Shown: in pieces, positions 1 through 17,752 of the stretch
Layout: each line of letters starts with the position of its first letter
Position numbering within the stretch: position 1 is the first letter of the stretch
Assembly (NCBI GenBank): GCA_964482515.1
Contig: CAYZXT010000001.1
Coordinates: 169,373 to 233,372 of the forward strand
DNA: 64,000 nt
Direction of reading: 5' to 3'
Source: an uncultured Elusimicrobia bacterium
GTDB lineage: Bacteria > Elusimicrobiota > Elusimicrobia > FEN-1173
Translations under genes and position numbers: made by a program
The notes under the pieces: generated by a model
What the model saw: the letters and a program-made list of their open reading frames with translations, nothing else
The model's database searches: none
Told to the model about the DNA's origin: nothing

Positions 1-456
1 TTGTTTCTGCGCCTTCCGTTGCTCGGTTCCCTGGCGCAACGGATCGCCATGGCCCGTTTCGCCCACACCCTGGAAATCCTTCTATCGGGCGGTGTGCCGC
101 TCGTGGAGGCGCTCCAGACCGCCGCCGACGTCATGGGAAATAAAATCTTGCGCGCCCAAACACTGGAAGCCGCAGTGCGCGTCCGGCGCGGCGTTTCTTT
201 GGCTGAAAGTCTGAAGGCCTGCCCGGAGTTTTCGTCGCTGCTGCCGCAGATGGTCGCCATTGGCGAAGAGGGAAACACCGTCGAAAAGGCCCTGGGCCGC
301 GTGGCGATGATCTACGAAAGGGAATCCGACCGGGCGATGAAAACGATTCTCTCTCTGGTGGAGCCGGCGTTCATCCTCACGGTCGGCGGCGCGGTGGGGG
401 CCATCGTTGTGGCCATGCTGCTGCCGATCTTCCAGATCCCGGTGTTCGTGAGATGA
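1..456 (+). CDS. gspF: Type II secretion system platform protein GspF (PilC/GspF family), C-terminal portion; 5' end outside window
   Basis: Translation (ORF track 1..456) has the conserved GspF C-terminal region (LLSGGVPLVEAL...LPQMVAIGEEGN...EPAFILTVGGAVGAIVVAMLLPIF) and a C-terminal TM helix. It is followed by gspG with an ATGA overlap. Confidence 0.85.
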   Translation: MFLRLPLLGSLAQRIAMARFAHTLEILLSGGVPLVEALQTAADVMGNKILRAQTLEAAVRVRRGVSLAESLKACPEFSSLLPQMVAIGEEGNTVEKALGRVAMIYERESDRAMKTILSLVEPAFILTVGGAVGAIVVAMLLPIFQIPVFVR

Positions 457-923
457 AGAAAATCCGGGGGACTTTGGAGAATACACATCGCCCCGGATTG
501 GGGAACAGAGGGTTTACGTTGGTGGAAATGCTGCTCGTGGTGATCATCATTTCCACTCTGGCCGCCATGATCGTGCCGCGCTTCGCCGGGCGATCCGAGG
601 AGGCGAAAACGGCCGCCGCCGCGGCGGACGTGCGGGCCAACCTCGCCGCCGCCCTGGACCTCTACGAATTGGACAACGGCTTGTATCCCACGACGGCGCA
701 GGGGCTGGCCGCCCTTAAATCCGCTCCGACCTCCGCGCCGATGCCGAAACGATGGCGCGGCCCCTATTTGAAAAAGAACTCCCTCTCCGATCCCTGGGGA
801 AACCCCTACGTCTACCGGTCGCCGGGTTCGCACAACGCGGCGGACTACGATCTGTTTTCCACCGGGCCGGACGGCGCGGAAGGGAACGGTGACGATGTCA
901 CCAATTGGGACGAGCGTGGATAA
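453..923 (+). CDS. gspG: Type II secretion major pseudopilin GspG
   Basis: Prepilin leader then G/FTLVEMLLVVIIIS (class III signal with Glu+5). Conserved GspG core (AAAADVRANLAAALDLYELDNGLYPTTAQGLAAL...WRGPYL...DPWGNPYVY). ATG 453 overlaps gspF stop (ATGA). Confidence 0.93.
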   Translation: MKKIRGTLENTHRPGLGNRGFTLVEMLLVVIIISTLAAMIVPRFAGRSEEAKTAAAAADVRANLAAALDLYELDNGLYPTTAQGLAALKSAPTSAPMPKRWRGPYLKKNSLSDPWGNPYVYRSPGSHNAADYDLFSTGPDGAEGNGDDVTNWDERG

Positions 924-1392
924 GAAATGGCAAAGGGGTTTTACGTTGATTGAACTTGTTTTCGTGGTCATGCTTCTCGGCGTTTTCCTCGGGATGGCGG
1001 CGCCGGTCTTTCGCGGAGCCTACCGGGCTGTGGCTTTGGATGTGGCCGCGGACAGGTTGGTGGGATTGCTGGCCTACGGCCGGGAGCGGGCGGTCATGGA
1101 ACGTTCCCGGCTCCGGCTGGAAATTGATACCGCGACGGGATCTTATCGTCTTTTGCTGGAAGATCCGTCGGCGCCGGGAGATTTCCTCCCTTTGCGCGAG
1201 AGTATTGGGCGGGGGATATTGCTCCCCGCCGGTACGGTCCTGGAACCCGGCCGTCCCTATGTGGAGTTCCTTCCGGACGGGACGGTCGACGAAGGTTCCC
1301 TGACGATCAAGGGGGCGATGAACGACGTCCGGCGGATCGATTGGGATTCCCTCACCGGCAACGCGAGGGTCCATGATCCGGCGCGGGGCTGA
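916..1392 (+). CDS. gspH: Minor pseudopilin, GspH-like (prepilin N-terminal cleavage/methylation domain)
   Basis: Motif QRG/FTLIELVFVVMLLGV. Position directly after gspG. ORF track starts at ATG 889, but in-frame GTG 916 gives a canonical short leader (MDKKWQRG/FTLIE) and overlaps the gspG stop by 8 nt; start choice uncertain (889 or 916). Confidence 0.7.
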   Translation: MDKKWQRGFTLIELVFVVMLLGVFLGMAAPVFRGAYRAVALDVAADRLVGLLAYGRERAVMERSRLRLEIDTATGSYRLLLEDPSAPGDFLPLRESIGRGILLPAGTVLEPGRPYVEFLPDGTVDEGSLTIKGAMNDVRRIDWDSLTGNARVHDPARG

Positions 1393-1690
1393 GGGTTTCG
1401 TGCTGCTGGAGGTCTTGTTGTCCGCGTTGATTCTGACCGTGGGCGTGTTCGCCCTGTTCGGATCGTTCTCGTCTGCGCGGCGGATGGCGAAGGCGGAGGA
1501 GGAATGGACGCGGGCCGTTTTCCTCCTGGAAGCCGGGACTTGGGCATGGGAGAAAACCGGGAAGTGGCCGCCTACCGATGGAAACCTGCGCCACGACGAG
1601 GTTCAGGATAAATCCGCGCGGCGCGGAACCCTCTTCGTCCGCCTGTCGCCGGACCGGAACGATGAATTGTCTTTGTCGGCGTACCGATGA
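1373..1690 (+). CDS. gspI: Minor pseudopilin, GspI-like
   Basis: Leader MIRRGAEG/FVLLEVLLSALILTV (prepilin motif) in a ~105-aa protein. Size and position after gspH match GspI. Confidence 0.65.
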   Translation: MIRRGAEGFVLLEVLLSALILTVGVFALFGSFSSARRMAKAEEEWTRAVFLLEAGTWAWEKTGKWPPTDGNLRHDEVQDKSARRGTLFVRLSPDRNDELSLSAYR

Positions 1691-2265
1691 GAAAAAATGC
1701 GGAAGGCTACACGCTCGTGGAGTTGTTGATCGCCCTGGCCGTTTTTTCGGCCCTCGCCGCGTCCTTCGCCGTGGCGCTGCGGCAGGGGTTCCATTCCTGG
1801 AAGATGCAAAGGGAGGATCAGCTTCGCCGCCAGGAGGCGAGGGTTGTCTTGAACCGGCTGGCACGGGATCTGCGGAACGCCGTCCCGCTCGCGAAGGAAA
1901 GTTTCATCGGTTCGGAGCGGGAAATCATTTTCCATAGACCCGAGGAGAACGGGATCGTCCGCGTCCAGTATCGCCTGTCGGAGAATCACGGGAACACGGT
2001 CCTGGAACGCCGGCATCAGTTCCTGTCGCGGGAAGGGAACGGAACGCCGGTGCGGCGCGCCACGATTTCGTCGTCGATGAAAGTCCATTGGGAATTCGCC
2101 GCTAAATCCCCGGAAAACGGAGAGATTATTTGGCGGCGGAAGTGGACGGACGGCGATGGCTTCCCCTTGGGGATGCGCGTCCGGCTCGAGCTTCCGTCCG
2201 CGGACGGGCGTGCGCCGCCGGTCGTTTATCAGCGGATTTTGGATTTCCCCTTGGGAGGGACATGA
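1687..2265 (+). CDS. gspJ: Minor pseudopilin, GspJ-like
   Basis: Leader MRKNAEG/YTLVELLIALAVFSAL (prepilin motif). ~190 aa. ATGA overlap with gspI stop. Confidence 0.65.
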   Translation: MRKNAEGYTLVELLIALAVFSALAASFAVALRQGFHSWKMQREDQLRRQEARVVLNRLARDLRNAVPLAKESFIGSEREIIFHRPEENGIVRVQYRLSENHGNTVLERRHQFLSREGNGTPVRRATISSSMKVHWEFAAKSPENGEIIWRRKWTDGDGFPLGMRVRLELPSADGRAPPVVYQRILDFPLGGT

Positions 2266-2266
2266 C

Positions 2267-3130
2267 ATGGCGCGGCGCCGGAACGAAACCGGATCGCTCC
2301 TCATCATCGCTCTATGGGCGCTGCTCGTTGTGGGACTGCTGGCCCTGGGCGTTTCCCACGGCGCGCGGTTCGCGCTGCGGCTGACGGAATATCAGCGGGA
2401 CGAGATACGCCTGACCCAGGGCGCCAAGGCGGCCGCGGCTTTTTGCGCGGGAGTCGTGAGCGAGGAGGGTCCGCCGGTGACGGCCTTGAACCAGCCCTGG
2501 CGGGCGGACTTCAGCCGCGGCGGAGACCATCCCATTCCCGGCGGCTCGTTCACCGTCCACGGTTTCGGGTTAGTCGATGAAGAAGGGAAAGTCAATCTGA
2601 ACGAAGCGTCCGCCGGGGAGTTGAATCGGATTTTCGAAAACGAGCCGCGCTGCGTCGTTTCCGTCCAACAGCAGCGGCTGTTCAGCGTGTCGGAACTTCG
2701 GGCTCTTCCGGGCATGACCGTGGAAGCCTACGAGCGGATCAAGGACGCCGTGACGGTACACGGTTCCGGGCGGATCAATATCAATACCGCGGGCGCGAAG
2801 ACCTTGGAGTTCCTGGGGATGAAAAAACCCCTCATCGGCAAAATCATGAATTTTCGCGGCGGGCCGGACGGAATCAACGGGACGGCGGACGACGGTGTCT
2901 TTCGAAACCTCGCGGGCATGGCGGGCGAACTGGGGGCGCGCGTGGTTCTGACAGACGAGGAAAGGGCCGTGCTTGCGGAGCTTCTAAGTCGCGGCCGGTT
3001 AACGGTGAGGTCACGGGTTTTCGCCGGAGATTTCATCGTCCGCCTCAGCGACAGCCGCGCTATCCGGCGCTGCCGCGTGGTCTTCGACGCCGAGAGCGGC
3101 AAAATCCTTTCCTGGCGGGAGGAGCCGTGA
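2267..3130 (+). CDS. gspK: Type II secretion minor pseudopilin GspK-like
   Basis: In-frame ATG 2267 one nt after the gspJ stop. N-terminus GSLLIIALWALLVVGLLALGVSHGARFALRLTEYQRDE is typical of GspK. Helix-hairpin-helix-like region (SELRALPGMTVEAYERI). The longer ORF-track start 2156 overlaps gspJ and was not used. Confidence 0.75.
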   Translation: MARRRNETGSLLIIALWALLVVGLLALGVSHGARFALRLTEYQRDEIRLTQGAKAAAAFCAGVVSEEGPPVTALNQPWRADFSRGGDHPIPGGSFTVHGFGLVDEEGKVNLNEASAGELNRIFENEPRCVVSVQQQRLFSVSELRALPGMTVEAYERIKDAVTVHGSGRININTAGAKTLEFLGMKKPLIGKIMNFRGGPDGINGTADDGVFRNLAGMAGELGARVVLTDEERAVLAELLSRGRLTVRSRVFAGDFIVRLSDSRAIRRCRVVFDAESGKILSWREEP

Positions 3131-4542
3131 ACCATCGCGCCACCGGAATATTTTGGAACAGGCGGGGCGTGGCCGTGGCGGAGGTCGATAATTCTTCCTT
3201 TGCTCCGGTCGTGGCCAGGTGGGCTTGGGCCCCTTTCGAGACCGAATCGCTTGAGGGCCGGGCGCGGACGATCCATCAATTGTTCGTGGAATACAACTTC
3301 TCGCAAAAGACGGTCGTGGCCGCGCTGGCGCAAAAGGCCGCGCTCTTGAAAATCGTGACCCTTCCGGCGGCGTCGCCGGCGGACACCGCCTCCATGGCCG
3401 ACATTCAGGCGTGGAAACTGTTGCCTCTTTTGGCGGAGGAGCCGGAGTCCGGGTATGAGATTTTGGAGGAGAAGAGGACGGAGCGCCTCGTGGCTTTGAC
3501 CATCGCGCGGCGGGGAGAGACCGAGGATATCCTTTCGACGCTTTCCGCCGCGGGAGTCCGTCCGGAGAGCGTTGTTCCGGAGTTTTACGCGCTCCTGTTC
3601 GCTTCTTGCGGGAGAGCGCCGGCGGGCGACCTGGCCCTCATCCATACGGATGCGGAGCGGATGATCTTCGTTTGTTCGCGTCGGGAAAAAGTTTCCTTCG
3701 CCCGCGCCGTGGATTTCAATGGCGACGGGGATTCGCGCTATGACGATGAACGCATCCTGGCGGAGTGGCGCAAATGCGCTGGCGCGTTCGAGGGGCCGTA
3801 CGGCCCGGTGCGGATTGTTTTGGCGGGCGATGCCGCGGCTTTGCCTTACCTGAAGGAGCGGTTCCACAAGGAAACGGGTCTCCAGGTAGAATCTTCGGAC
3901 CCCTTTTCCATCGTCTCCCGCCTGGCGGGCGCGCCGGAAAACCTGGAGGGGCAAACCTGCGCGCTGGTCGCCCTCGGGGCGGCGATGTCCGCCGGGACAA
4001 CGCGCTTGAATTTCCTTCCCAGGGCGGAGAAGCAACGTCGCGCGAAAATCCTTCGCCTCCGGGAATGGGCGGGCGTGGCCGCGGCGGCTGTCTTTCTTTT
4101 CGCGTCTCTCGGCGTGGTTGCTTTCCAAAAGTCGCGTGAAATGAAACGGCGGCTGCAGATTATGGAAATGCGTCTCACTGTGCTGCGGCCGGAGGCGGTG
4201 GAGGCGGAGAAGATGCTGAAGGAAATCGCCCTCGCGCGGGCACGGCGGGATACCCGGGGAGCCGCGCTGGGCGTCCTGTCGGAGGTGAGCAAGACCATGT
4301 CCGCGGACGTCGCTTTGTCCGCGTTGGATTATGAGAAGGGAGAACGTGTGTCGATCCGGGCCGCGGCGCGGAACCTGTCCGCGGCGGCGTCCTGGGTCCG
4401 GCGCATCGCCCAGTCCGGAACCTTCCGAAGCGTGGAGCTGCGTTCCTCGTCGGTCCGCGAGGGCGCCGCAGGGGCCGTTGTGGACTTTCAGGCGGTGGGG
4501 ATCCTGACGCCGGGCGAAATGAATGAACTTACCCAGGGTTGA
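3127..4542 (+). CDS. gspL: GspL-like assembly protein (cytoplasmic PilM/actin-like domain, single TM, periplasmic PilN-like domain)
   Basis: GTG 3127 overlaps gspK stop (GTGA). Internal TM (WAGVAAAAVFLFASLGVVAF) follows a ~300-aa cytoplasmic domain and precedes a coiled-coil periplasmic part. Position in the F-G-H-I-J-K-L-M order. Confidence 0.55.
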   Translation: MNHRATGIFWNRRGVAVAEVDNSSFAPVVARWAWAPFETESLEGRARTIHQLFVEYNFSQKTVVAALAQKAALLKIVTLPAASPADTASMADIQAWKLLPLLAEEPESGYEILEEKRTERLVALTIARRGETEDILSTLSAAGVRPESVVPEFYALLFASCGRAPAGDLALIHTDAERMIFVCSRREKVSFARAVDFNGDGDSRYDDERILAEWRKCAGAFEGPYGPVRIVLAGDAAALPYLKERFHKETGLQVESSDPFSIVSRLAGAPENLEGQTCALVALGAAMSAGTTRLNFLPRAEKQRRAKILRLREWAGVAAAAVFLFASLGVVAFQKSREMKRRLQIMEMRLTVLRPEAVEAEKMLKEIALARARRDTRGAALGVLSEVSKTMSADVALSALDYEKGERVSIRAAARNLSAAASWVRRIAQSGTFRSVELRSSSVREGAAGAVVDFQAVGILTPGEMNELTQG

Positions 4543-5050
4543 TTTCTCCCGGCGGGAAAAAGTCGCGGCGGTTTCGGCGGCAACGGTCGTCTGCGTTTAT
4601 CTGCTTTGCCGGACGATGTTGTTTCCCGCGTGGGCGAGCTGGTGGATGTTGTCCGACGAGCTCTCCCTGCGCGAAGCAGAATTACGCAAAGCGCTCGCGC
4701 TGGCTCAATGGCGGGAGGATTTGATCGCGCAATGGAGGAGCATCGCCGGAAAGGAGACGTACTCCGCGCGCGGCGACCAAAACGCCATGGACCTGGTGCG
4801 GGACGCCGAATCCTGGGCCAAACGTTCGGGTGTGAAAATCATCGATCTGCGCCCGGTACGAGCCGAAGCTGCGGACAATCTTCATTCGACGGTCGGCGTC
4901 CATCTTTCGATCGAAGGAAGCTGGCCGTCCCTGGTACGCTTCCTGGAACGGGCGCAAAATGCCGGGCTGTCCGTGGAGTCGCTCCACATCCAACGTCCGC
5001 CCGACGGCGGACCAACGCTGTACGCGATGCTGTCCGTCGAAAAGATTTAA
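4523..5050 (+). CDS. gspM: GspM/PilO-like bitopic inner-membrane assembly protein
   Basis: N-terminal TM (AAVSAATVVCVYLLC), coiled coil, C-terminal alpha/beta domain. Last gene of the cluster before the terminator. Assignment is by position and architecture. Confidence 0.45.
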   Translation: MNLPRVDFSRREKVAAVSAATVVCVYLLCRTMLFPAWASWWMLSDELSLREAELRKALALAQWREDLIAQWRSIAGKETYSARGDQNAMDLVRDAESWAKRSGVKIIDLRPVRAEAADNLHSTVGVHLSIEGSWPSLVRFLERAQNAGLSVESLHIQRPPDGGPTLYAMLSVEKI

Positions 5051-5061
5051 TCGGCATCCAT

Positions 5062-5107
5062 AAAACAAAAAACCCTTCCCCGGTGAGGAGGAAGGGTTTC
5101 TGTTTTT
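5062..5107. terminator. Bidirectional Rho-independent terminator between convergent gspM(+) and rplI(-)
   Basis: A-tract aaaacaaaaa, a 9-bp GC stem (aacccttcc / ggaagggtt) with a 10-nt loop, then tctgttttt. A T-tract is present on both strands. Confidence 0.75.
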
Positions 5108-5109
5108 AA

Positions 5110-5138
5110 TCTGGATTCCGGCTTTCGCCGGAATGACG
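5110..5138. repeat. REP-like palindromic intergenic element (copy 1), tctggattccggctttcgccggaatgacg
   Basis: The 29-nt sequence is identical to 16664..16692. Contains inverted repeat ttccggc/gccggaa around loop tttc. Confidence 0.7.
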
Positions 5139-5142
5139 ACAT

Positions 5143-5598
5143 CTAGCCTTGGCGGGCGTTGACCTGGATCTTGAAGACCGCACGGACTTGCGGGTGCAGC
5201 CGCACGGCGCCGGTGAATTCGCCCGTGGCGCGGATGGGTTGGAACTCCACCCAGCGGCGGTCGATGGGGAACCCCTTTTCGCCCAGCACGTGGGCCACGT
5301 CGGCGGTGGTGACGGAGCCGAACAGCTTTCCGTCTTCGCCGGCGCGGGCCTGCAGGGTGACCACGATCTCCTGGATCTTCTTCGCCTCGGCCTGGGCCTC
5401 GGCGAGCTTCTTCTCGTTGTCGGCGGCGAGCTTTTTCTTCTGCTCTTCCACCTTTTCCAGTCCCCGTTTCGAGGCGATGGAGGCGAGCTTGCGCGGGAGC
5501 AGGTAGTTGCGCGCGTAACCGTTGGCCACGTCCATGACGTCGCCGGTCACGCCCAGGTTCGGAATGTCTTTTTGAAGGATGATTTTGGTTTTATGCAT
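5143..5598 (-). CDS. rplI: 50S ribosomal protein L9
   Basis: MHKTKIILQKDIPNLGVTGDVMDVANGYARNYLLPRKLA... is canonical L9. Start taken at internal Met (ATG at 5598), giving a normal-length L9; the ORF-track N-terminal extension to 5688 overlaps rpsR and was not used. Confidence 0.9.
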   Translation of the reverse strand: MHKTKIILQKDIPNLGVTGDVMDVANGYARNYLLPRKLASIASKRGLEKVEEQKKKLAADNEKKLAEAQAEAKKIQEIVVTLQARAGEDGKLFGSVTTADVAHVLGEKGFPIDRRWVEFQPIRATGEFTGAVRLHPQVRAVFKIQVNARQG

Positions 5599-5606
5599 GG
5601 TTGGCC

Positions 5607-6062
5607 TCAGGCGTCCGTGAAGGGTAAAAGCGCCAGGTTCTGCGCCCGCTTGATGGCGGACGTCATTTGACGCTGGTGCCGGGCGCAATTGCCCGTGGTC
5701 CGGCCGGCGAGGAGCTTCCCGCGGGCGGTCATGAAGTTGCGGAGGATGTGGATGGCTTTATAATCCACTTCGAAGACTTTCTCGGCGCAGAACTGGCAGA
5801 CCTTGCGCCGGGGGGGACCCATGCGCCGGCCGCCGCGTCCGCCGCCGGGGCCTGAAGAGGGACGTCCGGCTCCGCCGGGGCCCGAACGGTGCGGTCCGCC
5901 GGGGCGGTAGCCGCCCTGGCCTTGGCCGCCGGGGCGATAGCCGCCCTGTCCCTGGGGACGGGGCGTGTAGGTCGAAGGCGTCGATGCCGGGGCCGCAGGA
6001 GCGGCTGTTGGCTGCGCCGGGGTTTCCGGATTTGAAGGGGTTGTGGGTGTCGTCATGTTCAT
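5607..6062 (-). CDS. rpsR: 30S ribosomal protein S18 with ~80-aa N-terminal low-complexity (Pro/Thr/Ala then [10 protein letters not shown] repeats) extension
   Basis: C-terminal 71 aa ([71 protein letters not shown]) aligns end-to-end with canonical S18. The reading frame stays open upstream to 6062, where a strong SD (AAAGGAGA) sits a few nt before ATG 6062/6056. A canonical-length form would start at ATG 5822, which has no SD. Confidence 0.85.
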
Positions 6063-6068
6063 TCTCCT

Positions 6069-6530
6069 TTAGAAAGGGATTTCTTCGTCAGTTGCCGAGG
6101 CCGCGGGAGCGGATTCAGATGAGGCCCCCAGGACCGCCACCGGTTCGCCTTCGGCCGATTCTTCCGAGGCGGAGGATGCGTCCGCTTTTTCCAGGAACTG
6201 GACGCGCAGGGATTCGACTTCGATCCCCGACCGTTTTTGGCCTTCCTTGGTCTCCCAAGTCTTGCTCTTCAAACGGCCTTCCACGTAAACCGGGCTGCCT
6301 TTTTTCAAGCGTTCACCGCAGCGCTGGCCGGCTTCGCGCCAAACCACCACCGGGATGAAGGACGTGTCGTCCTTCCACTCGCCCGTGCCGTCCTTGTAGC
6401 GGCGGTTCACGGCCAGGTCGAAGCGGCAGACGGCCGCGCCCTTGGTGGTGAAGCGGAGTTCCGGGTCGCGGGTCAGGCGGCCCACCATGCGGACATCGTT
6501 AAGCTGGGGTAGACGTAGCGGGTTTGTCAC
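6069..6530 (-). CDS. ssb: Single-stranded DNA-binding protein
   Basis: OB-fold core (LNDVRMVGRLTRDPELRFTTKGAAVCRFDLAVNRRY...), low-complexity acidic tail ending DEEIPF. Overlaps rpsF 3' end by 32 nt if start 6530 is used (alternative Met at 6488). Confidence 0.9.
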   Translation of the reverse strand: MTNPLRLPQLNDVRMVGRLTRDPELRFTTKGAAVCRFDLAVNRRYKDGTGEWKDDTSFIPVVVWREAGQRCGERLKKGSPVYVEGRLKSKTWETKEGQKRSGIEVESLRVQFLEKADASSASEESAEGEPVAVLGASSESAPAASATDEEIPF

Positions 6531-6945
6531 CGGAAGCCTCCTTGGTTTCGGTCGCGGCGGGCGCTGTTCCTGCGGCGGCCGGTGCGGCGGTGGTCGGCGC
6601 GGACGTCACCGTGGTCGCTCCGGGGGCCAGCGGGCCTCTGCGCGGCGGAACCGGGCGGAAGACCGGGGCCTTGCAGGTCAGGTGGCGGATGATGTCGTCC
6701 GACACGCGGTAAAATTGGGTCATTTCCCCGAGGATGGTCCCGGGGCCTTCGAAGGTCATCAGGACGTAGAAGCCTTCGCGGTTGCGGTCGATGGGATAGG
6801 CCAGGCGGCGTCGTCCCCACTTGTCGACGGCCTTGAACTCTCCGCCGTTCTTGCTGATGATGCCTTTGAGTTTTTCGATGATGTCATCGAGCTTCTGGGG
6901 GGCTAATTCCACCGGGGCAATAAAGATGCTTTCGTATTTTTGCAC
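6499..6945 (-). CDS. rpsF: 30S ribosomal protein S6 with Ala/Pro/Thr-rich C-terminal tail
   Basis: MQKYESIFIAPVELAPQKLDDIIEKLKGIISKNGGEFKAVDKWGRRRLAYPI is canonical S6. GTG start at 6945 preceded by SD GAGGAGG. C-terminal ~50 aa are low complexity. Confidence 0.9.
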   Translation of the reverse strand: MQKYESIFIAPVELAPQKLDDIIEKLKGIISKNGGEFKAVDKWGRRRLAYPIDRNREGFYVLMTFEGPGTILGEMTQFYRVSDDIIRHLTCKAPVFRPVPPRRGPLAPGATTVTSAPTTAAPAAAGTAPAATETKEASGDKPATSTPA

Positions 6946-7024
6946 TCTGTTTCCTCCTCATGGGCTCCCGCCGGGCGGCGGGGTGGGCTGCGCTCGATGG
7001 AACCAGCGCAACCGAAGTGGGGGA

Positions 7025-7053
7025 ATGATAGCAAAAATGCCCGACGGCGACAA
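7025..7053 (-). promoter_or_regulatory. Candidate sigma70-type promoter for the rpsF-ssb-rpsR-rplI operon
   Basis: On the minus strand, TTGTCG-17nt-TATCAT lies about 80 nt upstream of the rpsF start. Identified by eye only. Confidence 0.25.
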
Positions 7054-7134: not shown

Positions 7135-7641
7135 ATGAAAGAAATTTTTTCCACGGAATTCATCTCGCGCGTTATTCTGATCGGCGCCGGCGCCACGGCG
7201 GTCATGGACCTTTGGGCGCTTCTGTTGAAACAGTTCGGGATCAAGTCTTTGAACTTCGCGTTCCTGGGGCGCTGGATCGGCCACCTTCCCCAAGGGAAAT
7301 GGATCCACGAGAGCATCGCCCAGTCCGCCCCGGTGAAAGGCGAGCTGGTGATCGGGTGGTGCGCGCATTATTCCATCGGGATCACCTTCGCCGCGCTTCT
7401 GGTTTCCGTGTTCGGCCTGGGATGGGCGCGGTCGCCGTCCCTGCTCCCGGCGCTGCTTGTGGGGGTTTCGACGGTGGCGGCTCCCTTGTTCATCCTGCAG
7501 CCCGGCCTCGGGCTCGGGATCGCGTCTTCCAAGACCCCGACGCCCGTTTTCAACGCCCTCAAGAGCCTCGCCACGCACACGGTCTTCGGGTTCGGCCTAT
7601 ACCTCGCGGCGCTCGTAGCGGCCAAGTTTATTCCTATTTGA
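7135..7641 (+). CDS. DUF2938-family integral membrane protein
   Basis: 168 aa, 4-5 TM segments. N-terminal GAGATAVMDLWALLLKQFGI and downstream HYSIGITFAALL, LLPALLVG match the DUF2938 family signature as I recall it. RBS AAAGGA 8 nt upstream. Confidence 0.6.
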   Translation: MKEIFSTEFISRVILIGAGATAVMDLWALLLKQFGIKSLNFAFLGRWIGHLPQGKWIHESIAQSAPVKGELVIGWCAHYSIGITFAALLVSVFGLGWARSPSLLPALLVGVSTVAAPLFILQPGLGLGIASSKTPTPVFNALKSLATHTVFGFGLYLAALVAAKFIPI

Positions 7642-7721
7642 ACGCTGTTGGATTCTAGTTGGCACTTTCCAAACCCTCCGCAAAACTGTTAACATGGTGC
7701 TCTGATTTTCAGTCGTAGAAT

Positions 7722-7820
7722 CTTGCCGCACTCGCGTCAGCGCCGCGAGTACAGGCAGGCGGGGCCAGATATCTAATACTTGCCGCACTTTTCGCAGGGC
7801 GAAAAGTACAGGCAGGCGGG
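7722..7820 (+). repeat. Tandem pair of ~43-nt units (period 57 nt) in the tRNA-Thr leader, each being cttgccgcac-[hairpin]-gtacaggcaggcggg
   Basis: Unit A 7722..7764 has stem actcgcg/cgcgagt. Unit B 7779..7820 has stem acttttcg/cgaaaagt. Flanks are identical and the stems are fully different but both self-complementary. Confidence 0.6.
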
Positions 7821-7844
7821 CCCCAAGAGGGCCCGAATACCCCT

Positions 7845-7917
7845 GCCGGGGTAGCTCAGCTGGTAGAGCAGCCGCTTCGTAAGCGGCAGGTCGTCGGTTC
7901 GATCCCGATCCCCGGCT
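7845..7917 (+). tRNA. tRNA-Thr (anticodon CGU)
   Basis: 73 nt. Acceptor GCCGGGG/CCCCGGC, D-arm GCTC-AGCTGGTAG-GAGC, anticodon stem GCCGC/GCGGC with loop TTCGTAA (anticodon CGT), T-arm GTCGG-TTCGATC-CCGAT, discriminator T. CCA not encoded. Confidence 0.9.
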
Positions 7918-7950
7918 TATTTTTTCAGACGTGAAAACATTAATTGTCTC

Positions 7951-9408
7951 TTGATGCAGGGCCGTAGGCATGGTATTAGTAATCGTATCCAAATGATCTT
8001 GCGGGAGATACCCATTAATCGATTGTTTTCGGCCAAACGCGGGCGATTCCGTTATCTGACGGCGTCGCTCGTTTTTTTTGCGGGCGCCCTCCATGCCGCT
8101 TCCCCGGGAGCGGACAGCTTTTCGTTCCTGAACATCTCGCCCTACGCCCGCTCCGCTGCTTTGGCGGACGCGACTTCCGCCTACGTCGGCGATACCTTCT
8201 CCGTTTATTCCAACCCCGCGGGCCTGGCCCACCTCCAGGAAAAATCCGCTTCCATCAACCACGTCAGCCATTTCCAGGGCGTGGCCTACGACAACCTAAC
8301 CTATATAATGCCCTACGGCCGCGGCGGGGTCGGCGCGAGCCTGGGTTACCTGCGTTACTCGGACATTCCCAAAACGACGTTCAATCCCTCGGCGACGGCC
8401 ACGGGCGCGGACCGTTTCACCCAGTCGGGCGACATCGACGCCGGCGACTACGCCGCCTCGGTCGCCTGGGGGTTCCGCCATAACAGCAACCTCGCGCTGG
8501 GGGCGAACTTCAAGCTCGTCCAGGAAACCCTGGACACCAAATCCTCCGTGGCCGCGTTGTTCGACGCGGGGGGGATCTACCGTTTTCCGCTCTACCGCCA
8601 GTGGCGCGCGGCCGCCGTGCTGCAGAACGTGGGCTACGCCACCAAATTCATTTCCGAGACGCCCGACGTCCCGACCCGGCTGCGCGGCGGGCTCTTCTAT
8701 TCTCCGGAGATGTGGGCCGACTGGTCGGGGGAACTTGTCTATAACCTGCACGGGAACCCGGAGGTCGCCCTCGGCGGGGAATTCAGTTGGCAGCAGACGG
8801 CTTTCCTGCGCGCCGGTTACCGCTACGGTTTCCGCGATGCGAAGCTCGGGGGATTGACGGGCGCGTCCCTGGGCGTCGGCCTGAAGGCCGGTTCCTTCCG
8901 GCTGGACTACGCATTCCTTCCCTTCGGTGATTTGGGGGATTCGCACCGGATCTCCCTCGGCTGGAGCTTCGGCTCGCCTCGGACCGGCCGTGCCGCCGCG
9001 GAGCTGAAGCGCCCCATCGCGGTTTCCGAATTCGAGGCTGAGAACGTTTCGCTCGAGGACGCCCGGACCGCCGCGGGCTATCTGCGCATGGAACTGGAGC
9101 GCAGCAGCCCCTTCCGCGTCATGAACGTTTACGAGATGCGCGGCACCCTGGCGCGCAAGGCGTTTTCGCCCGCGTCCTGCCCCTCGCCGGACTGCGCCGT
9201 CAGGATGGGCCGGGCCCTCAACGTCGACAAGTTGATCGTGTGCAGCCTGGCCCGCCGCAACGAAGGTTTCTTCATCACGGGCGATCTGGTGGACGTCGGC
9301 ACGGGCACCGTGGAGAGACAGGAAACGATCGCGATCGCCTCCGCGGACCAGCTTCCGACGGCGTCGCGCGACCTGGCCAAACGATTCTTTCCGCCCGTTG
9401 TCAGATAA
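7951..9408 (+). CDS. Outer-membrane beta-barrel protein (PorV/UPF0164-like N-terminal barrel) fused to a C-terminal ~130-aa periplasmic alpha/beta module
   Basis: Signal peptide (RFRYLTASLVFFAGALHA/AS). Barrel with alternating amphipathic beta-strands and a C-terminal aromatic residue before a linker. The first residues of the mature protein (SFLNISPYARSAALADATSAYVGDTFSVYSNPAGL) recall PorV/FadL-type barrels. The true start is probably downstream of 7951 (ATG 7993 or TTG 8023). Confidence 0.6.
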   Translation: MMQGRRHGISNRIQMILREIPINRLFSAKRGRFRYLTASLVFFAGALHAASPGADSFSFLNISPYARSAALADATSAYVGDTFSVYSNPAGLAHLQEKSASINHVSHFQGVAYDNLTYIMPYGRGGVGASLGYLRYSDIPKTTFNPSATATGADRFTQSGDIDAGDYAASVAWGFRHNSNLALGANFKLVQETLDTKSSVAALFDAGGIYRFPLYRQWRAAAVLQNVGYATKFISETPDVPTRLRGGLFYSPEMWADWSGELVYNLHGNPEVALGGEFSWQQTAFLRAGYRYGFRDAKLGGLTGASLGVGLKAGSFRLDYAFLPFGDLGDSHRISLGWSFGSPRTGRAAAELKRPIAVSEFEAENVSLEDARTAAGYLRMELERSSPFRVMNVYEMRGTLARKAFSPASCPSPDCAVRMGRALNVDKLIVCSLARRNEGFFITGDLVDVGTGTVERQETIAIASADQLPTASRDLAKRFFPPVVR

Positions 9409-9435: not shown

Positions 9436-12207
9436 ATGCAGGCCACCGAAACCGTTCCCGAACGCCATCCTTCCAATTACTTAGCGGATTTTTTTTCGCG
9501 CCTGGTCGGCTACAGCCTTCCCGTCGTTTATTTCCTCGTCACCGTTTCCTTCTATTTAAGGACCTACGATTCCGCCCAGATTAAAATCACCCTGACCCAG
9601 ATCGGCTGCACCATGGTGATCCTGTTTTGGTTCGCCCAACTAATCCTGGAAAAGCGCTGGCCGCTCCGGAAGGACGACCTGCTGCTCGCCGCGCCTTTCC
9701 TGGCGTCGCTGCTTTCGGGCACGGTATCGTTCCTGCAATCCTCTTTCCTCGCCGGCAGCGTGGACGAATACATCCGCCGCGTGCTTTACGTGTTCATGGC
9801 CCTGATCGTCATCGTCGAGTTCCGCGGCTGGGACCGCCACCGCCGCCTCATGCGCTGGTTCCTGGCGGCCTTCGGCGTGGTGGTGTTCTACGGGTTCGTT
9901 CAGTTCTTCGACACGCGGCTTTTCCCGCCGGGCCAGGGAATGGGCATCGATCCCTTCGTCTGGCGCTACGCCTTCGGGCTGCGTCCGTTCTCCAGCTTCG
10001 GCAACCCCAACTTCTACGGCAATTTCCTGGTGCTGATCACGCCCATCGTGCTGGCGATGTATCTGAGCCGGGGCGGGCAGATCCTGCGCCCCTACGCGCT
10101 CATCGGCCTTTTGATCTTTGTGGTCTTCGGCACGGACAAACTCTTCACGGGCGTATTCGGCAGCATCGACGCCGCGACGCGCGTTTGGATCGAGGTCGGC
10201 CTGGTCGCGGGCCTGGCCCTCTCGGCCGGTCTGGTGTGGTGGAAGACGCCGGGCGCCGGCGCTTCGGGCATGCTGATCTTCCTGGGCGCGCTCTTCGTCA
10301 ACCTGTACGCCACGGAAACAAAGGGCGCCTGGCTGGGTTTCACCGCGTCCCTGATCGGCACCACGGTCCTGGTCGGGTTTTTCTTCCTGGGGGAGAACGC
10401 GGGCCGGCTGGCGAAGCGGCTGTTCGCCGTGGCCCTCATCGCCGCCGTCGTCGGCGCGAGCGTGGTGTTCTATTATTCGCGGCGCCGCATCAATTCCGTC
10501 AACTTCCGGATCTTCACCTGGATCGGGACCTGGGAAATGATCCGCGACCAACCCATCCTCGGCACCGGCATCGGATCGTTCAAGTGGACCTATCCGGCCT
10601 ACCGCCGCCCGCAGATCATCCAGATCGAAGGGAAGTCCAACACCGAGACCGACCACGCGGAGGACGAGTACCTCGAGGTTTGGTTCGACGAAGGCATCGT
10701 CGGCATCGGGATTTTCTTCTGGCTGATCCTGATGGTGAGCGTGTTGGGCGTCCGCGCCCTCAAGACGCTGACCAAGCAGACGGCCCAGGGGCCGCCCGGG
10801 ACCAAGCACGGCGAGCGCGCTTTCAGCATCCTGGCGTTCCTGGCCGCCTACTGGGGCGGGCTCGTGCATTGGCTGATGGACGTTTCCATCCGCTTCGTTT
10901 CATCGGGCATTTATTCGTTCCTGTTGCCCGGCCTGGTGGTGAGCCTCGCGCGCAACCGTATCCCGGTGCGGCAGGACCCGCCTTCCTCCCTGGACCGTTG
11001 GGTGCGGCTCGGCCTCGTGGTCTTTTGGGCCGCGACGCTGTTAAGCTTTCAGATGAGCTTCGTCCCCGTGCTGGCCTGCTGCGGCGCCCTCTGGCTGCTG
11101 GGGGAAGTGCTGGAGATCCGCCTGACGCCCGAAGCCGCGTCCCCGTCCGAGACCGCGCCGGCGTCCGACCTTTTGCAGGAGGGACTGCGCGCCACGCGGG
11201 TTTGGCAGTTCGCCGCCATCCTGGCCGTGGCCGCGCTGTGGGGCTACGGGTTCAACGTGTTCCGGAATTTCTTCATGGCCGACGTCAACCACAACATCGC
11301 CATCTTCTTTTCCAAGCAGGGCATCTGGGCCAAGTCCCCCGAGTTCGACGCCGCCGTGGCGGGCTTTCCGCCGGACATGCAGCGCGAGTACAAGGACATT
11401 GGCGGCGCCGTCGAGCATTACGAAACCGTGGTGCGGCTGAACCCCTTCTTCCCCATGGCGCGCTATTTCATCGGCAACGTCTACAACGACTGGGGTTCGA
11501 CGGTCTATTCCCAAAGCGTGGACGCCCGCCAGAAGGGCAACACGGCCCAGGCCGACGCGCTGCAGAAACGGGCCGAGGACATGTGGCGCAAGGCCATCGC
11601 CACCTACGACCGCGTAAAAAAGTTTGCGCCGAACTATGTCCAGACCCACCACCAGGTGGGATTGGTGTATCTGAAGATGGGCGACATGGCGCGCACGCTC
11701 GGCCAGGAGGACAAGGCGAAAGAGCATTGGGCGAACGCCCTGAAAAATTTCGAGCTCTACCGCCAGCTCGACCCCGTCTTCCCGCCGAACCATTACCGCA
11801 TGGCCTACGTGCACTATTCCCTGCAGGACTACGATAAAGCCGAGGCGGCTTACCTGGGCGCGCTTCCCTACAACAAGATGACGCCGGACCGCAACGCGGA
11901 AACCTATTCGAACCTCGGGCGGCTGGCCTACATCCAGCTGGCGAACAAATATCCCAACGCGAAGCAATGGCCGAAGGATTCGCCGGAATTCAAGAAGACG
12001 ATCGAGTATTACAAGCTGGCCGTCTCGGAAGCCGAACGGGCCCAGGGCGTCAACGGCTCGGACCGCTGGGCGATGGATTCATTGAAGGGGATGGCGCTGC
12101 TGTACTCGCGGGCGGACATGGAGAAGGAAGCCGTTGAGATTTGGCACAAGATCCGCGCCCTCAACCCCGAGGACCCGGATGTGAAGAGAGTCTTCGGCAT
12201 CAAATGA
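9436..12207 (+). CDS. Polytopic membrane protein with Wzy_C (O-antigen ligase/polymerase-like) domain and C-terminal TPR repeats (paralog 1)
   Basis: About 12 TM helices. Conserved SFGNPNFYGNFLVLITP loop motif typical of Wzy_C/WaaL/PglL-type proteins. C-terminal ~330 aa are TPR-like (GNVYNDWG..., VGLVYLKMGD..., MAYVHYSLQDYDKAEAAY...). Confidence 0.75.
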   Translation: MQATETVPERHPSNYLADFFSRLVGYSLPVVYFLVTVSFYLRTYDSAQIKITLTQIGCTMVILFWFAQLILEKRWPLRKDDLLLAAPFLASLLSGTVSFLQSSFLAGSVDEYIRRVLYVFMALIVIVEFRGWDRHRRLMRWFLAAFGVVVFYGFVQFFDTRLFPPGQGMGIDPFVWRYAFGLRPFSSFGNPNFYGNFLVLITPIVLAMYLSRGGQILRPYALIGLLIFVVFGTDKLFTGVFGSIDAATRVWIEVGLVAGLALSAGLVWWKTPGAGASGMLIFLGALFVNLYATETKGAWLGFTASLIGTTVLVGFFFLGENAGRLAKRLFAVALIAAVVGASVVFYYSRRRINSVNFRIFTWIGTWEMIRDQPILGTGIGSFKWTYPAYRRPQIIQIEGKSNTETDHAEDEYLEVWFDEGIVGIGIFFWLILMVSVLGVRALKTLTKQTAQGPPGTKHGERAFSILAFLAAYWGGLVHWLMDVSIRFVSSGIYSFLLPGLVVSLARNRIPVRQDPPSSLDRWVRLGLVVFWAATLLSFQMSFVPVLACCGALWLLGEVLEIRLTPEAASPSETAPASDLLQEGLRATRVWQFAAILAVAALWGYGFNVFRNFFMADVNHNIAIFFSKQGIWAKSPEFDAAVAGFPPDMQREYKDIGGAVEHYETVVRLNPFFPMARYFIGNVYNDWGSTVYSQSVDARQKGNTAQADALQKRAEDMWRKAIATYDRVKKFAPNYVQTHHQVGLVYLKMGDMARTLGQEDKAKEHWANALKNFELYRQLDPVFPPNHYRMAYVHYSLQDYDKAEAAYLGALPYNKMTPDRNAETYSNLGRLAYIQLANKYPNAKQWPKDSPEFKKTIEYYKLAVSEAERAQGVNGSDRWAMDSLKGMALLYSRADMEKEAVEIWHKIRALNPEDPDVKRVFGIK

Positions 12208-16633: not shown

Positions 16634-16692
16634 CCCCGGCGAAAGCCGGGGTCCAGTTAGCTTTCTGGATTCCGGCTTTCGCCGGAATGACG
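16634..16692. repeat. Composite REP/BIME-like element: hairpin ccccggc-GAAA-gccgggg, then REP copy 2 (tctggattccggctttcgccggaatgacg)
   Basis: 16664..16692 is identical to 5110..5138. The upstream hairpin core ccggcgaaagccgg is the exact reverse complement of the REP core ccggctttcgccgg. Located in the 81-nt ruvA-ruvB spacer. Confidence 0.65.
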
Positions 16693-16708: not shown

Positions 16709-17752
16709 ATGACTAAAATCGATGAAAACGAATTCCCTCGGGCGGTGTCGGCCGCCGTTCTGCCCGAGGAAGCGGTGGTGGACTCCGCCCTGAGGCCGCA
16801 GTCCCTGGACGAGTTCGTCGGCCAGGAGAAGCTGAAGGACAATTTGAAGGTCTTCATCGAAGCGGCCAAAAAACGCAAGGAGCCCCTGGACCACTGCCTT
16901 TTCTCCGCGCCCCCCGGCTTGGGGAAAACCACGCTGGCCCACATCATCGCCAAGGAAATGGGCGTGAACCTGCGCCAGACGTCCGGGCCAGTGCTCGAGC
17001 GCGTCGGCGACCTGGCCGCCATCCTCACGAACCTCGGCGAAGGCGACATCTTTTTTATCGACGAGATCCACCGCCTGAACCACGTGGTGGAGGAGGCGCT
17101 TTATCCGGCCATGGAGGATTACGCGCTGGACATCATCATCGGTCAGGGACCCTCGGCCAAGACCATCAAACTGCCGCTGCCGCGCTTCACTCTCGTCGGC
17201 GCCACGACGCGCGCGGGGCTTTTGACCGGACCGCTGCGCGACCGTTTCGGCATCGTGGCGCAGCTGGAGTTTTATGAAGACAAGGATTTGCTCCAGATCG
17301 TGAAACGCTCCTGCGGGATTTTATCCACGCCGCTGGAGGACGAAGCGGGCCGCGAGATCGCCCGCCGCTCCCGAGGTACGCCCCGCATCGCCAACCGCCT
17401 GCTCCGCCGCGTGCGCGATTTCGCGGAGGTGAAGTCCGGCGGGCGCATCGACATGAAGGTGACGCGCCACGCCCTCGACGCCTTGGAAGTGGACGCCCTG
17501 GGTTTGGACGCGTCGGACCGCCGCATCCTCGCCGCCATCATCGAGAAGTTCAACGGCGGGCCCGTCGGGGTGGACACCATCGCCGTGGCGGTGAGCGAAG
17601 AGCGCGACACCGTAGAAGACGTCTACGAACCCTATCTGATCAAAGGCGGTTTTTTAGCCCGCACGCCCCGCGGGCGCGTCGCCACGGCCCTGGCCTACAC
17701 CCATCTCGGAAAGACGCCTCCCAAGAATCTCCAGCCGAACGATCTCTTTTAA
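16709..17752 (+). CDS. ruvB: Holliday junction DNA helicase RuvB
   Basis: Walker [19 protein letters not shown], and a winged-helix C-terminus. Full-length RuvB. Confidence 0.93.

Follow-up and report, generated by a model that had tools for sequence, protein, structure and literature searches.

In the 64,000 nt of Elusimicrobia DNA analysed here (the window, 64 kb), the gene for tRNA-Thr(CGU) is preceded by two tandem long hairpins which are a real, selected structure, with compensatory changes in relatives. Together with a short GC-rich hairpin and a linker of nearly constant length, the long hairpin makes up a module, a candidate for a new structured RNA motif that a narrow lineage of Elusimicrobiota carries in its pre-tRNA leaders. 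Our preferred reading, to which we give a probability of roughly 0.6, is that of a lineage-restricted, modular and structured element of pre-tRNA 5' leaders and inter-tRNA spacers that is removed by RNase P.

Tandem hairpins ahead of tRNA-Thr(CGU)

The original prediction described a tandem 43-nt motif with identical flanks and different, self-complementary centres. When the flanks were searched as an exact pattern (CTTGCCGCAC-N-GTACAGGCAGGCGGG), two matches were obtained in the 64-kb window, at 7722-7763 and 7779-7820, both on the + strand, against 0.00 expected by chance (100 shuffles). A looser pattern (GCCGCAC-N-GTACNGGC) returned the same two sites only, and the covariance model described below likewise detected no further copy of the unit in the window. 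The tandem arrangement and the pairing of identical flanks with different centres were thus confirmed, while the length had to be corrected: each unit measures 42 nt, with a period of 57 nt. The same leader was found in an independent assembly from another sequencing run (Logan SRR14787577, L003), so that the tandem hairpins are not an assembly artefact. The features of the locus are as follows.

7667..7695 (+): putative tRNA-Thr promoter, with a -35-like TTCCAA (7667-7672), a 17-nt spacer and an extended -10 (7687-7695)
7702..7712 (+): small hairpin CUGA-UUU-UCAG (CTGATTTTCAG), formed in the MFE fold, where the transcript is predicted to begin
7716..7721 (+): TAGAAT, without a TG extension and with no -35 at 16-18 nt
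7722..7759 (+): unit 1 (W1), the distal long hairpin; the exact-flank unit extends to 7763
7760..7778 (+): inter-unit spacer CGGGGCCAGATATCTAATA; 15 nt between the exact-flank units
7779..7816 (+): unit 2 (W2), the tRNA-proximal long hairpin, with a basal helix as in W1
7818..7834 (+): short GC hairpin GGGCCC-CAAGA-GGGCCC
7835..7844 (+): 10-nt single-stranded linker GAAUACCCCU, ending at the predicted RNase P cleavage site
7845..7917 (+): tRNA-Thr (anticodon CGU), CCA not encoded (ARAGORN; Rfam tRNA model, 67.3 bits)
7918..7925 (+): TATTTTTT run directly 3' of the acceptor stem, read from the sequence

The flanks of W1 and W2 are identical over 25/25 nt, and the centres are unlike: ACTCGCG/CGCGAGT with the loop TCAGCGC in W1, ACTTTTCG/CGAAAAGT with the loop CAGGG in W2. 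Four of the seven stem pairs that both centres share differ, and every differing pair is still paired. The "flanks" themselves belong to the helix: CUUGCC and GGCAGG pair at its base, and a bulged A and a C.A mismatch interrupt it, so that a unit forms an imperfect hairpin 38 nt long with about 14-15 pairs. From the base upwards, W1 consists of the outer stem CUUGCC/GGCAGG, a G-C pair, the C.A mismatch and the inner stem ACUCGCG/CGCGAGU closed by the loop UCAGCGC, with the bulged A at 7753, and the corresponding inner stem of W2 is ACUUUUCG/CGAAAAGU, with the loop CAGGG. In its sequence, the inter-unit spacer resembles a short hairpin that has decayed (cf. GGACCcagatGGTCC in the relative L006, see below), with an AU-rich stretch after it; the 12 nt preceding W2 are 83% A+T, against 38% for the whole window.

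Minimum free energies on the + strand are -19.6 (W1) and -19.5 kcal/mol (W2). The minus strand folds slightly better (-22.8 and -21.2 kcal/mol) because the conserved C.A becomes G.U there; the + strand has U.G pairs of its own, at pair O5 in the window units and at pair a in unit L6A of L006. Base-pair chemistry alone thus does not pick the tRNA strand. Folding z-scores are -4.5 for W2 and -3.9 for leader plus tRNA, and they reach -5.3 for the dicistron of the relative L015 and -5.7 for the leader of L006. When leader and tRNA were folded together (window, L015), the hairpins and the cloverleaf stayed separate.

The tRNA-Thr(CGU) gene is the sole tRNA gene in the window. Upstream of the motif lie rplI-rpsR-ssb-rpsF on the - strand and a DUF2938 gene on the + strand, and downstream follow genes for a PorV/UPF0164-like protein and for Wzy_C-TPR proteins. 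None of the neighbouring genes scanned is a cas, integrase, transposase or reverse-transcriptase gene. The closest named homologues of RuvB (16709-17752) come from Elusimicrobiota MAGs. Ribosomal protein S18 (5607-6062, -; 149-151 aa) has its S18 domain only at residues 97-146, following an N-terminal extension of about 95 residues that is present in the L004 and L006 species too. An imperfect direct repeat (ATTTTCAGTCG / ATTTTTTCAGACG) at 7705-7715 and 7919-7931 brackets leader and tRNA; its second copy (7919-7931) is not kept in L010.

Other intergenic structures were seen elsewhere in the window. An identical 28-nt element, CTGGATTCCGGCTTTCGCCGGAATGACG, which contains the hairpin ATTCCGGC-TTTC-GCCGGAAT, occurs in two intergenic regions (5111-5138 and 16665-16692), and a related hairpin, CCCCGGC-GAAA-GCCGGGG, lies at 16634-16651 near the second site. 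A similar hairpin (ATTCCGGC-GAAA-GCCGGAAT) stands beside a GIY-YIG gene in the relative L067 (7408-7427). The CTGGATTCCGGCTTTCGCCGGAATGACG elements look like a dispersed REP-like family distinct from the tRNA-leader motif. Between a T2SS-M-like gene and rplI, a canonical bidirectional terminator (AAAACCCTTCC-ccggtgagg-GGAAGGGTTT, 5072-5108) is flanked by A- and T-runs, and the genome thus uses ordinary T-tract terminators.

Modules in relatives and compensatory changes

Orthologous loci were retrieved via the flanking proteins, and modules were found in two of them, L006 and L015. L006 shares the rpsF-ssb-rpsR-DUF2938 synteny with the window, and its DUF2938 protein is 85% identical; DUF2938 homologues of less than 85% identity were not syntenic (L007), and contigs reached through RuvB (L069, L070) stop short of the tRNA. 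In the L006 species, DUF2938 is separated from the tRNA promoter by an inserted gene of 158 aa. Two units precede tRNA-Thr in this genome. The promoter box (19/19 nt) is followed by unit L6A, with the stem AUCACGGC/GCCGUGAU (ATCACGGC/GCCGTGAT as DNA), and by a hairpin GGGCCC-CAAGA-GGGCCC identical to that of the window. Then come a remnant of the left flank of a unit (TTTGCCGCAT) and unit L6B, with the stem UUUUGC/GCAAAA, its own short hairpin GGACC-CAGAU-GGUCC and a 10-nt linker up to the start of the tRNA. L015, whose PorV-like protein is 53% identical to that of the window, has one module before tRNA-Phe(GAA) (UUUUCC/GGAAAA plus CCGGCCC-AGA-GGGCCGG) and another before tRNA-Thr(CGU), located in a 97-nt inter-tRNA spacer (UUUCCC/GGGAAA plus GGCCC-GCAC-GGGCC).

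The full module starts with an AU-rich single strand (50-83% A+T ahead of each long hairpin, against 38% overall). The long hairpin itself, with about 14-15 bp, comes next; the short GC hairpin (5-7 bp) follows at a distance of 1-4 nt, and a single-stranded linker of 9-10 nt leads to the predicted RNase P site. The orientation relative to the tRNA is identical in 6/6 units (window, L006, L015). The linker is 9-10 nt long in all four motif-bearing tRNA leaders and 12-13 nt in the more distant L065 and L067. Perfect short hairpins stand at the equivalent position in L006, L015 (twice), L065 and L067, so that the short hairpin is perfect, yet divergent in sequence, in six leaders, at 9-13 nt from the tRNA.

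The six long hairpins were aligned by structure, each being checked against its source sequence; they come from 3 species and 4 tRNA loci and are not independent of one another. In the inner stem (pairs a-h), all 47 of 47 cells are paired in the six units, and two-sided changes occur at seven pairs (O4, b, d, e, f, g and h), with pair e taking the forms C-G, U-A, G-C and A-U. Shuffling, in which the 3' partners were re-dealt among the sequences and relatedness was ignored, gave a mean of 32.6 paired cells (sd 2.5), and 0/20,000 shuffles reached 47. Over all 15 pairs, 81/89 cells are paired against 64.3 expected, and again 0/20,000 shuffles reached the observed value. The proximal units alone show compensatory swaps (CG/CG, GC/GC, CC/GG) plus a change from U-A to C-G; the stems of the two distal units are wholly unlike. 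As a chance control, 53 matches to the flanks in viral contigs had centre stems of only 1-3 pairs, none reaching at least 4 bp. The claim that the differing stems reflect a selected structure rather than a plain duplication is borne out by these other pairing stems in L006 and L015.

A search with a covariance model had also been proposed. Our model R1, built solely from L6B and the two L015 modules, recovered the window at 7780-7844 with 42.8 bits (E = 3.6e-7), the sole match with E <0.1 in the 64 kb with filters off. W1, which is without a short hairpin and has a different stem, scored 9.5 bits.

Conservation is distributed unevenly along the hairpin. The basal half (GCCGCAC...GUAC(A)GGC) and the T-A pair above it are conserved in sequence. 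The irregularity of the helix is a C.A mismatch in five units, whereas L6A has C-G there and U.G at the neighbouring pair; a wobble-type pyrimidine(5').purine(3') irregularity is thus kept at the same helix level, and a bulged A may or may not accompany it. In geometry, a protonated A.C pair is equivalent to a G.U pair. Variable in sequence are the apical stem, the short hairpin and the loops (UCAGCGC, CAGGG, AUC, AGA, AGA and GGA), and the apical half of the long hairpin seems to need only to pair. RNAalifold on a MAFFT alignment proposed an alternative outer helix, CCGC/GCGG; every pair of it is invariant, so that it is neither supported nor excluded, and the outer helix used here is the contiguous one, on which the MFE folds of the single sequences all agree.

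In L015, a single base distinguishes the flanks of the two units. Flanks are not the same from one genome to another, with covariation at pairs O4 and O5. This distribution, with flanks nearly or fully identical within a genome, suggests either that the helix base is recognised by a co-evolving, trans-acting partner or that short tracts have undergone gene conversion.

More distant relatives differ in their leaders: in L067 a short GC hairpin is accompanied by an unrelated hairpin, L065 has the short hairpin only, L011 a different leader, and L068 a leader of only about 10 nt. The long hairpin is thus confined to a narrow lineage and the short hairpin is more widespread; since the long hairpin is missing from all four loci, the module is dispensable for tRNA maturation as such. 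Two observations on L067 are added here. About 120 nt separate its tRNA-Thr promoter from the end of an upstream called gene (positions 1-7047; 9,801 residues), and a 95-nt tRNA-Ser call by ARAGORN inside a Wzy_C gene (9818-9912) is probably a false positive.

The pattern GCCGCACTYN{10,14}RAGTACRGSNNGGC matched 49 loci in metagenome contigs, almost all in coding regions and none next to a tRNA, in a collection that covers the lineage poorly (the contig of L015 itself was not returned). In two groups of these loci the flanks GCCGCAC...GTAC(G/A)GC enclose a centre stem of 5-6 bp: L019/L024/L059 (L024:10100-10160), with TCATGG-aag-CCATGA followed by a short hairpin CTGCC...GGCAG, and L037/L047/L052 (L037:13402-13488), with TCACG-aaagc-CGTGA. 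R1 gave them only 17-22 bits, and no tRNA or Rfam RNA lies nearby. In L004 (3585-3630; L005 alike), the terminator after DUF2938 (GACGTG...CACGTC + TTTTTT) holds CTTGCCGCAC in its loop, the exact left flank of the window units, which could be the remnant of a unit or a coincidence. Plasmids and phages gave no match to the module.

Probable transcription with the tRNA and possible roles

The original prediction had both units co-transcribed with the tRNA from a -10-like TAGAAT. Co-transcription is supported by the comparison with relatives, from a different promoter. The extended -10 at 7687-7695, TGTTAACAT (TGtTAACAT), has counterparts of the form TGnTAnnAT at the equivalent place in L011 (TGaTACAAT), L015 (TGgTATACT), and L065 and L067 (TGcTACAAT), each followed by a GC-rich discriminator, and the 19-nt box CCGCAAAACTGTTAACATG is identical in L006. 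A strict sigma-70 scan reported no promoter, and the promoter box CGCAAAACTGTTAACATG gave two chance matches only (Aquificota, Shewanella) when searched against genome contigs. Transcription is predicted to start at about 7702, and CTGATTTTCAGTC of the small hairpin at 7702-7712 is kept in L006. With the conserved extended -10 upstream of both units, they would lie inside a pre-tRNA leader of about 143 nt. TAGAAT is an improbable promoter: it is not kept in L006 (...cagtctgacattttgatcgccgc at this position), has neither a -35 nor a TG, and would start transcription inside unit 1; it is probably a mere part of the AU-rich single-stranded stretch preceding that unit. The TATTTTTT run is likely to be the end of the tRNA-Thr transcription unit, and the same T-run is found 3' of the tRNA in L010, L011, L015 and L066. 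In L015 the spacer unit lies between two co-oriented tRNAs with no promoter-like sequence ahead of it, and must therefore be part of the precursor.

Context favours an RNA rather than a DNA structure, on the tRNA strand, given the common orientation of the six units, the fixed spacing to the RNase P site and the fact that no minus-strand gene reads through. At 4/4 loci in 3 species, the unit lies on the tRNA strand between the putative promoter, or a preceding tRNA, and the tRNA, and its pairs are kept by compensatory changes.

The main non-RNA rival is a palindromic repeat acting at the DNA level, similar to REP elements, MITEs or recombination sites, whose position in tRNA leaders would reflect an insertion preference and not an RNA function. 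It would form a single-stranded DNA hairpin that is kept perfect by template switching of its arms, or that is the target of an HUH/RAYT-type or other recombinase. Such an element would account for a minus strand that folds at least as well as the plus strand and for flanks that are the same within a genome and differ between genomes, as in REP-RAYT pairs. The variable copy number, with the left-flank remnant in L006, would fit as well, as would the 10-mer CTTGCCGCAC in the terminator loop of L004 and L005 and the two metagenome groups in which the same flanks surround a 5-6 bp centre stem with no tRNA close by. However, both pattern and covariance model single out the tRNA leader as the sole carrier in 64 kb, all six units are co-oriented with a fixed spacing to the tRNA, the module contains a second hairpin that covaries independently, no plasmid or phage matched, and the real dispersed REP-like element of the window, CTGGATTCCGGCTTTCGCCGGAATGACG, looks quite unlike it. 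We regard the DNA-level repeat as disfavoured and unlikely.

Among RNA readings, the main alternative is that the leader itself is the product, RNase P freeing a stable, highly structured small RNA that would act in trans, with a length of about 140 nt in the window and of about 60 nt for each L015 module. It could for example act as a protein decoy or scaffold, bound through the conserved basal helix and offering more binding sites where units are repeated in tandem. The E. coli tRNA operons offer a precedent, as spacer-derived regulatory RNAs are known from them. The modular tandem architecture with a conserved helix base and unconserved loops, the very stable folds, the flanks that co-vary within a genome and the dispensability of the module for tRNA maturation in relatives would all agree with a released functional RNA or protein decoy. 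Against it, no conserved single-stranded sequence is available for base-pairing with targets, there is no candidate partner protein, and only 3 species are involved, so that we hold this alternative to be rather improbable. The boldest proposal, and quite a doubtful one, sees in the module the unit that binds a protein in a small ribonucleoprotein system of Elusimicrobiota not known before. RNase P would then release a stable leader RNA with one to several hairpins of identical base, and their conserved basal helix with its wobble would evolve together with an RNA-binding protein or nuclease specific to the lineage. If this were true, tRNA transcription would be coupled to the titration or delivery of the bound protein.

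It is highly improbable that the hairpins are a transcriptional signal, be it a terminator or insulator against read-through from DUF2938, an attenuator, or a boxB/put-type hairpin that modifies RNA polymerase. Stable GC-rich hairpins within an untranslated leader are what such a signal would look like, and TGCTCT at 7698-7703 resembles the start of an rrn boxA; but this sequence is not kept (TGGCCT in L006), and no conserved boxA (TGCTCTTTAACAA-like) stands next to the hairpin (TGCTCTGATTTTCAG in the window, TGGCCTGATTTTCAG in L006). An intrinsic terminator was rejected, as a terminator scan of 7400-8200 was empty and no unit is followed by a T-run, the next nucleotides being GGGGCC or GGGCCC, while the genome uses ordinary T-tract terminators (5072-5108; after the tRNA). 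Moreover, the promoter sits between the upstream gene and the hairpins, and the L015 unit lies between two co-oriented tRNAs only 97 nt apart. Finally, a recent tandem duplication of chance palindromes without selected structure would explain two adjacent units with identical flanks, but it is scarcely credible and is already contradicted by the four of seven shared stem pairs that differ between the centres and all still pair, by four more units in two other species with an inner stem paired throughout, by the shuffles, none of which reached the observed pairing, and by the chance-match control, which showed no such stems.

We return to the structured leader and spacer element, for which a cis-acting role in processing or stability is our best guess. 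The module would be transcribed within the precursor, fold independently of the cloverleaf and be cut off by RNase P. The RNase P protein contacts leader positions -4 to -8, and a linker of 9-10 nt would be just long enough for this contact. A protein or a double-strand-specific nuclease probably recognises the conserved basal helix, with an RNase III-type enzyme or a lineage-specific binder as candidate partners. The role of the variable apical helix may be to make the hairpin long and stable; it would shield the precursor, insulate it and delimit processing between AU-rich stretches at which single-strand endonucleases of the RNase E/Y type enter. Unequal recombination between units would change their copy number (1-2 per leader, plus the remnant).

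Bacterial pre-tRNA 5' leaders are usually regarded as short, unstructured and unconserved, and the module would differ from this picture, as it shows clear covariation, is common to different tRNAs and occurs in tandem copies. In a phylum that is largely uncultured and has hardly been studied, it would open an entry into the processing and stability of tRNA precursors or into leader-derived RNAs, and it is well suited as a candidate for a new RNA family model. Its practical impact is modest, since it is a simple element, restricted to a narrow lineage and dispensable in relatives.

Comparison with known systems

Searches against Rfam 15 matched only tRNA, both in the window at the gathering threshold and in 7500-8100 with E up to 10, and the same holds for L006, L015, L065 and L067 at the gathering threshold. 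In the literature we found no described tRNA-leader motif; the motif surveys of Breaker and Weinberg mention tRNAs only beside GOLLD and ROOL.

Several identities were considered and rejected. A CRISPR array does not agree with only two units, differing centres, a distance of 15 nt and a conserved position ahead of a tRNA. ARAGORN gave no tRNA pseudogene, and hammerhead or other ribozymes, T-box and Y RNA/YrlA had no Rfam match. The loops (AGA, GGA, CAGGG, AUC) are not conserved as in a CsrA-type GGA-loop sponge, and a sarcin-ricin/loop E reading of AGUA fails because the opposite strand is GCAC and not GAA. Pairing between leader and trailer of the tRNA-Thr unit was considered and rejected as well.

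With integron attC sites the module shares a conserved outer sequence, a variable self-complementary centre and extrahelical bases. Unlike in attC, the outer sequences are GCCGCAC, which fits RYYYAAC at 5/7 positions, and GTAC(A)GGC, where GTACAGG misfits GTTRRRY; the neighbouring genes include neither cassettes nor an integrase, and the position before tRNAs is conserved across species.

The boxB-boxA-boxC leaders of rrn operons and the put RNAs of phage HK022 are also hairpins of conserved structure in the untranslated leaders of stable RNAs, and put, too, consists of two hairpins. The module differs in having no conserved boxA, TGCTCT being present in the window and not in L006, and with so short a transcript there is little need for antitermination.

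Like REP and BIME elements, the module is a GC-rich palindrome, 35-40 nt long and made imperfect by a mismatch or bulge, that has a genome-specific sequence and can occur in tandem. The REP-type palindrome with mismatch and bulge is present; GTAG is absent, and GTAC lies inside the 3' arm. Unlike REP/BIME, which occur as many dispersed copies in both orientations, the module is confined to the tRNA leader in the 64 kb, with two copies in a single orientation, and its variable apical stem covaries; the REP-like CTGGATTCCGGCTTTCGCCGGAATGACG of the window has another sequence and stands in other contexts.

Closest in role are the processing and spacer hairpins of stable-RNA operons, such as those of rRNA and tRNA ETS and ITS regions, RNase III stems and the E. 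coli 3'ETS-leuZ. Like these, the module would be transcribed together with the tRNA and removed by processing; it lies outside the mature tRNA, and its apical part is conserved in structure and not in sequence. It matches no described family in Rfam, and it differs from them in several respects: whereas rRNA processing stems are formed by distant 5' and 3' flanks, the module is made of local hairpins and constitutes a self-contained two-hairpin unit, held at a fixed 9-10 nt from the RNase P site, arranged in tandem and common to the leaders of different tRNAs.
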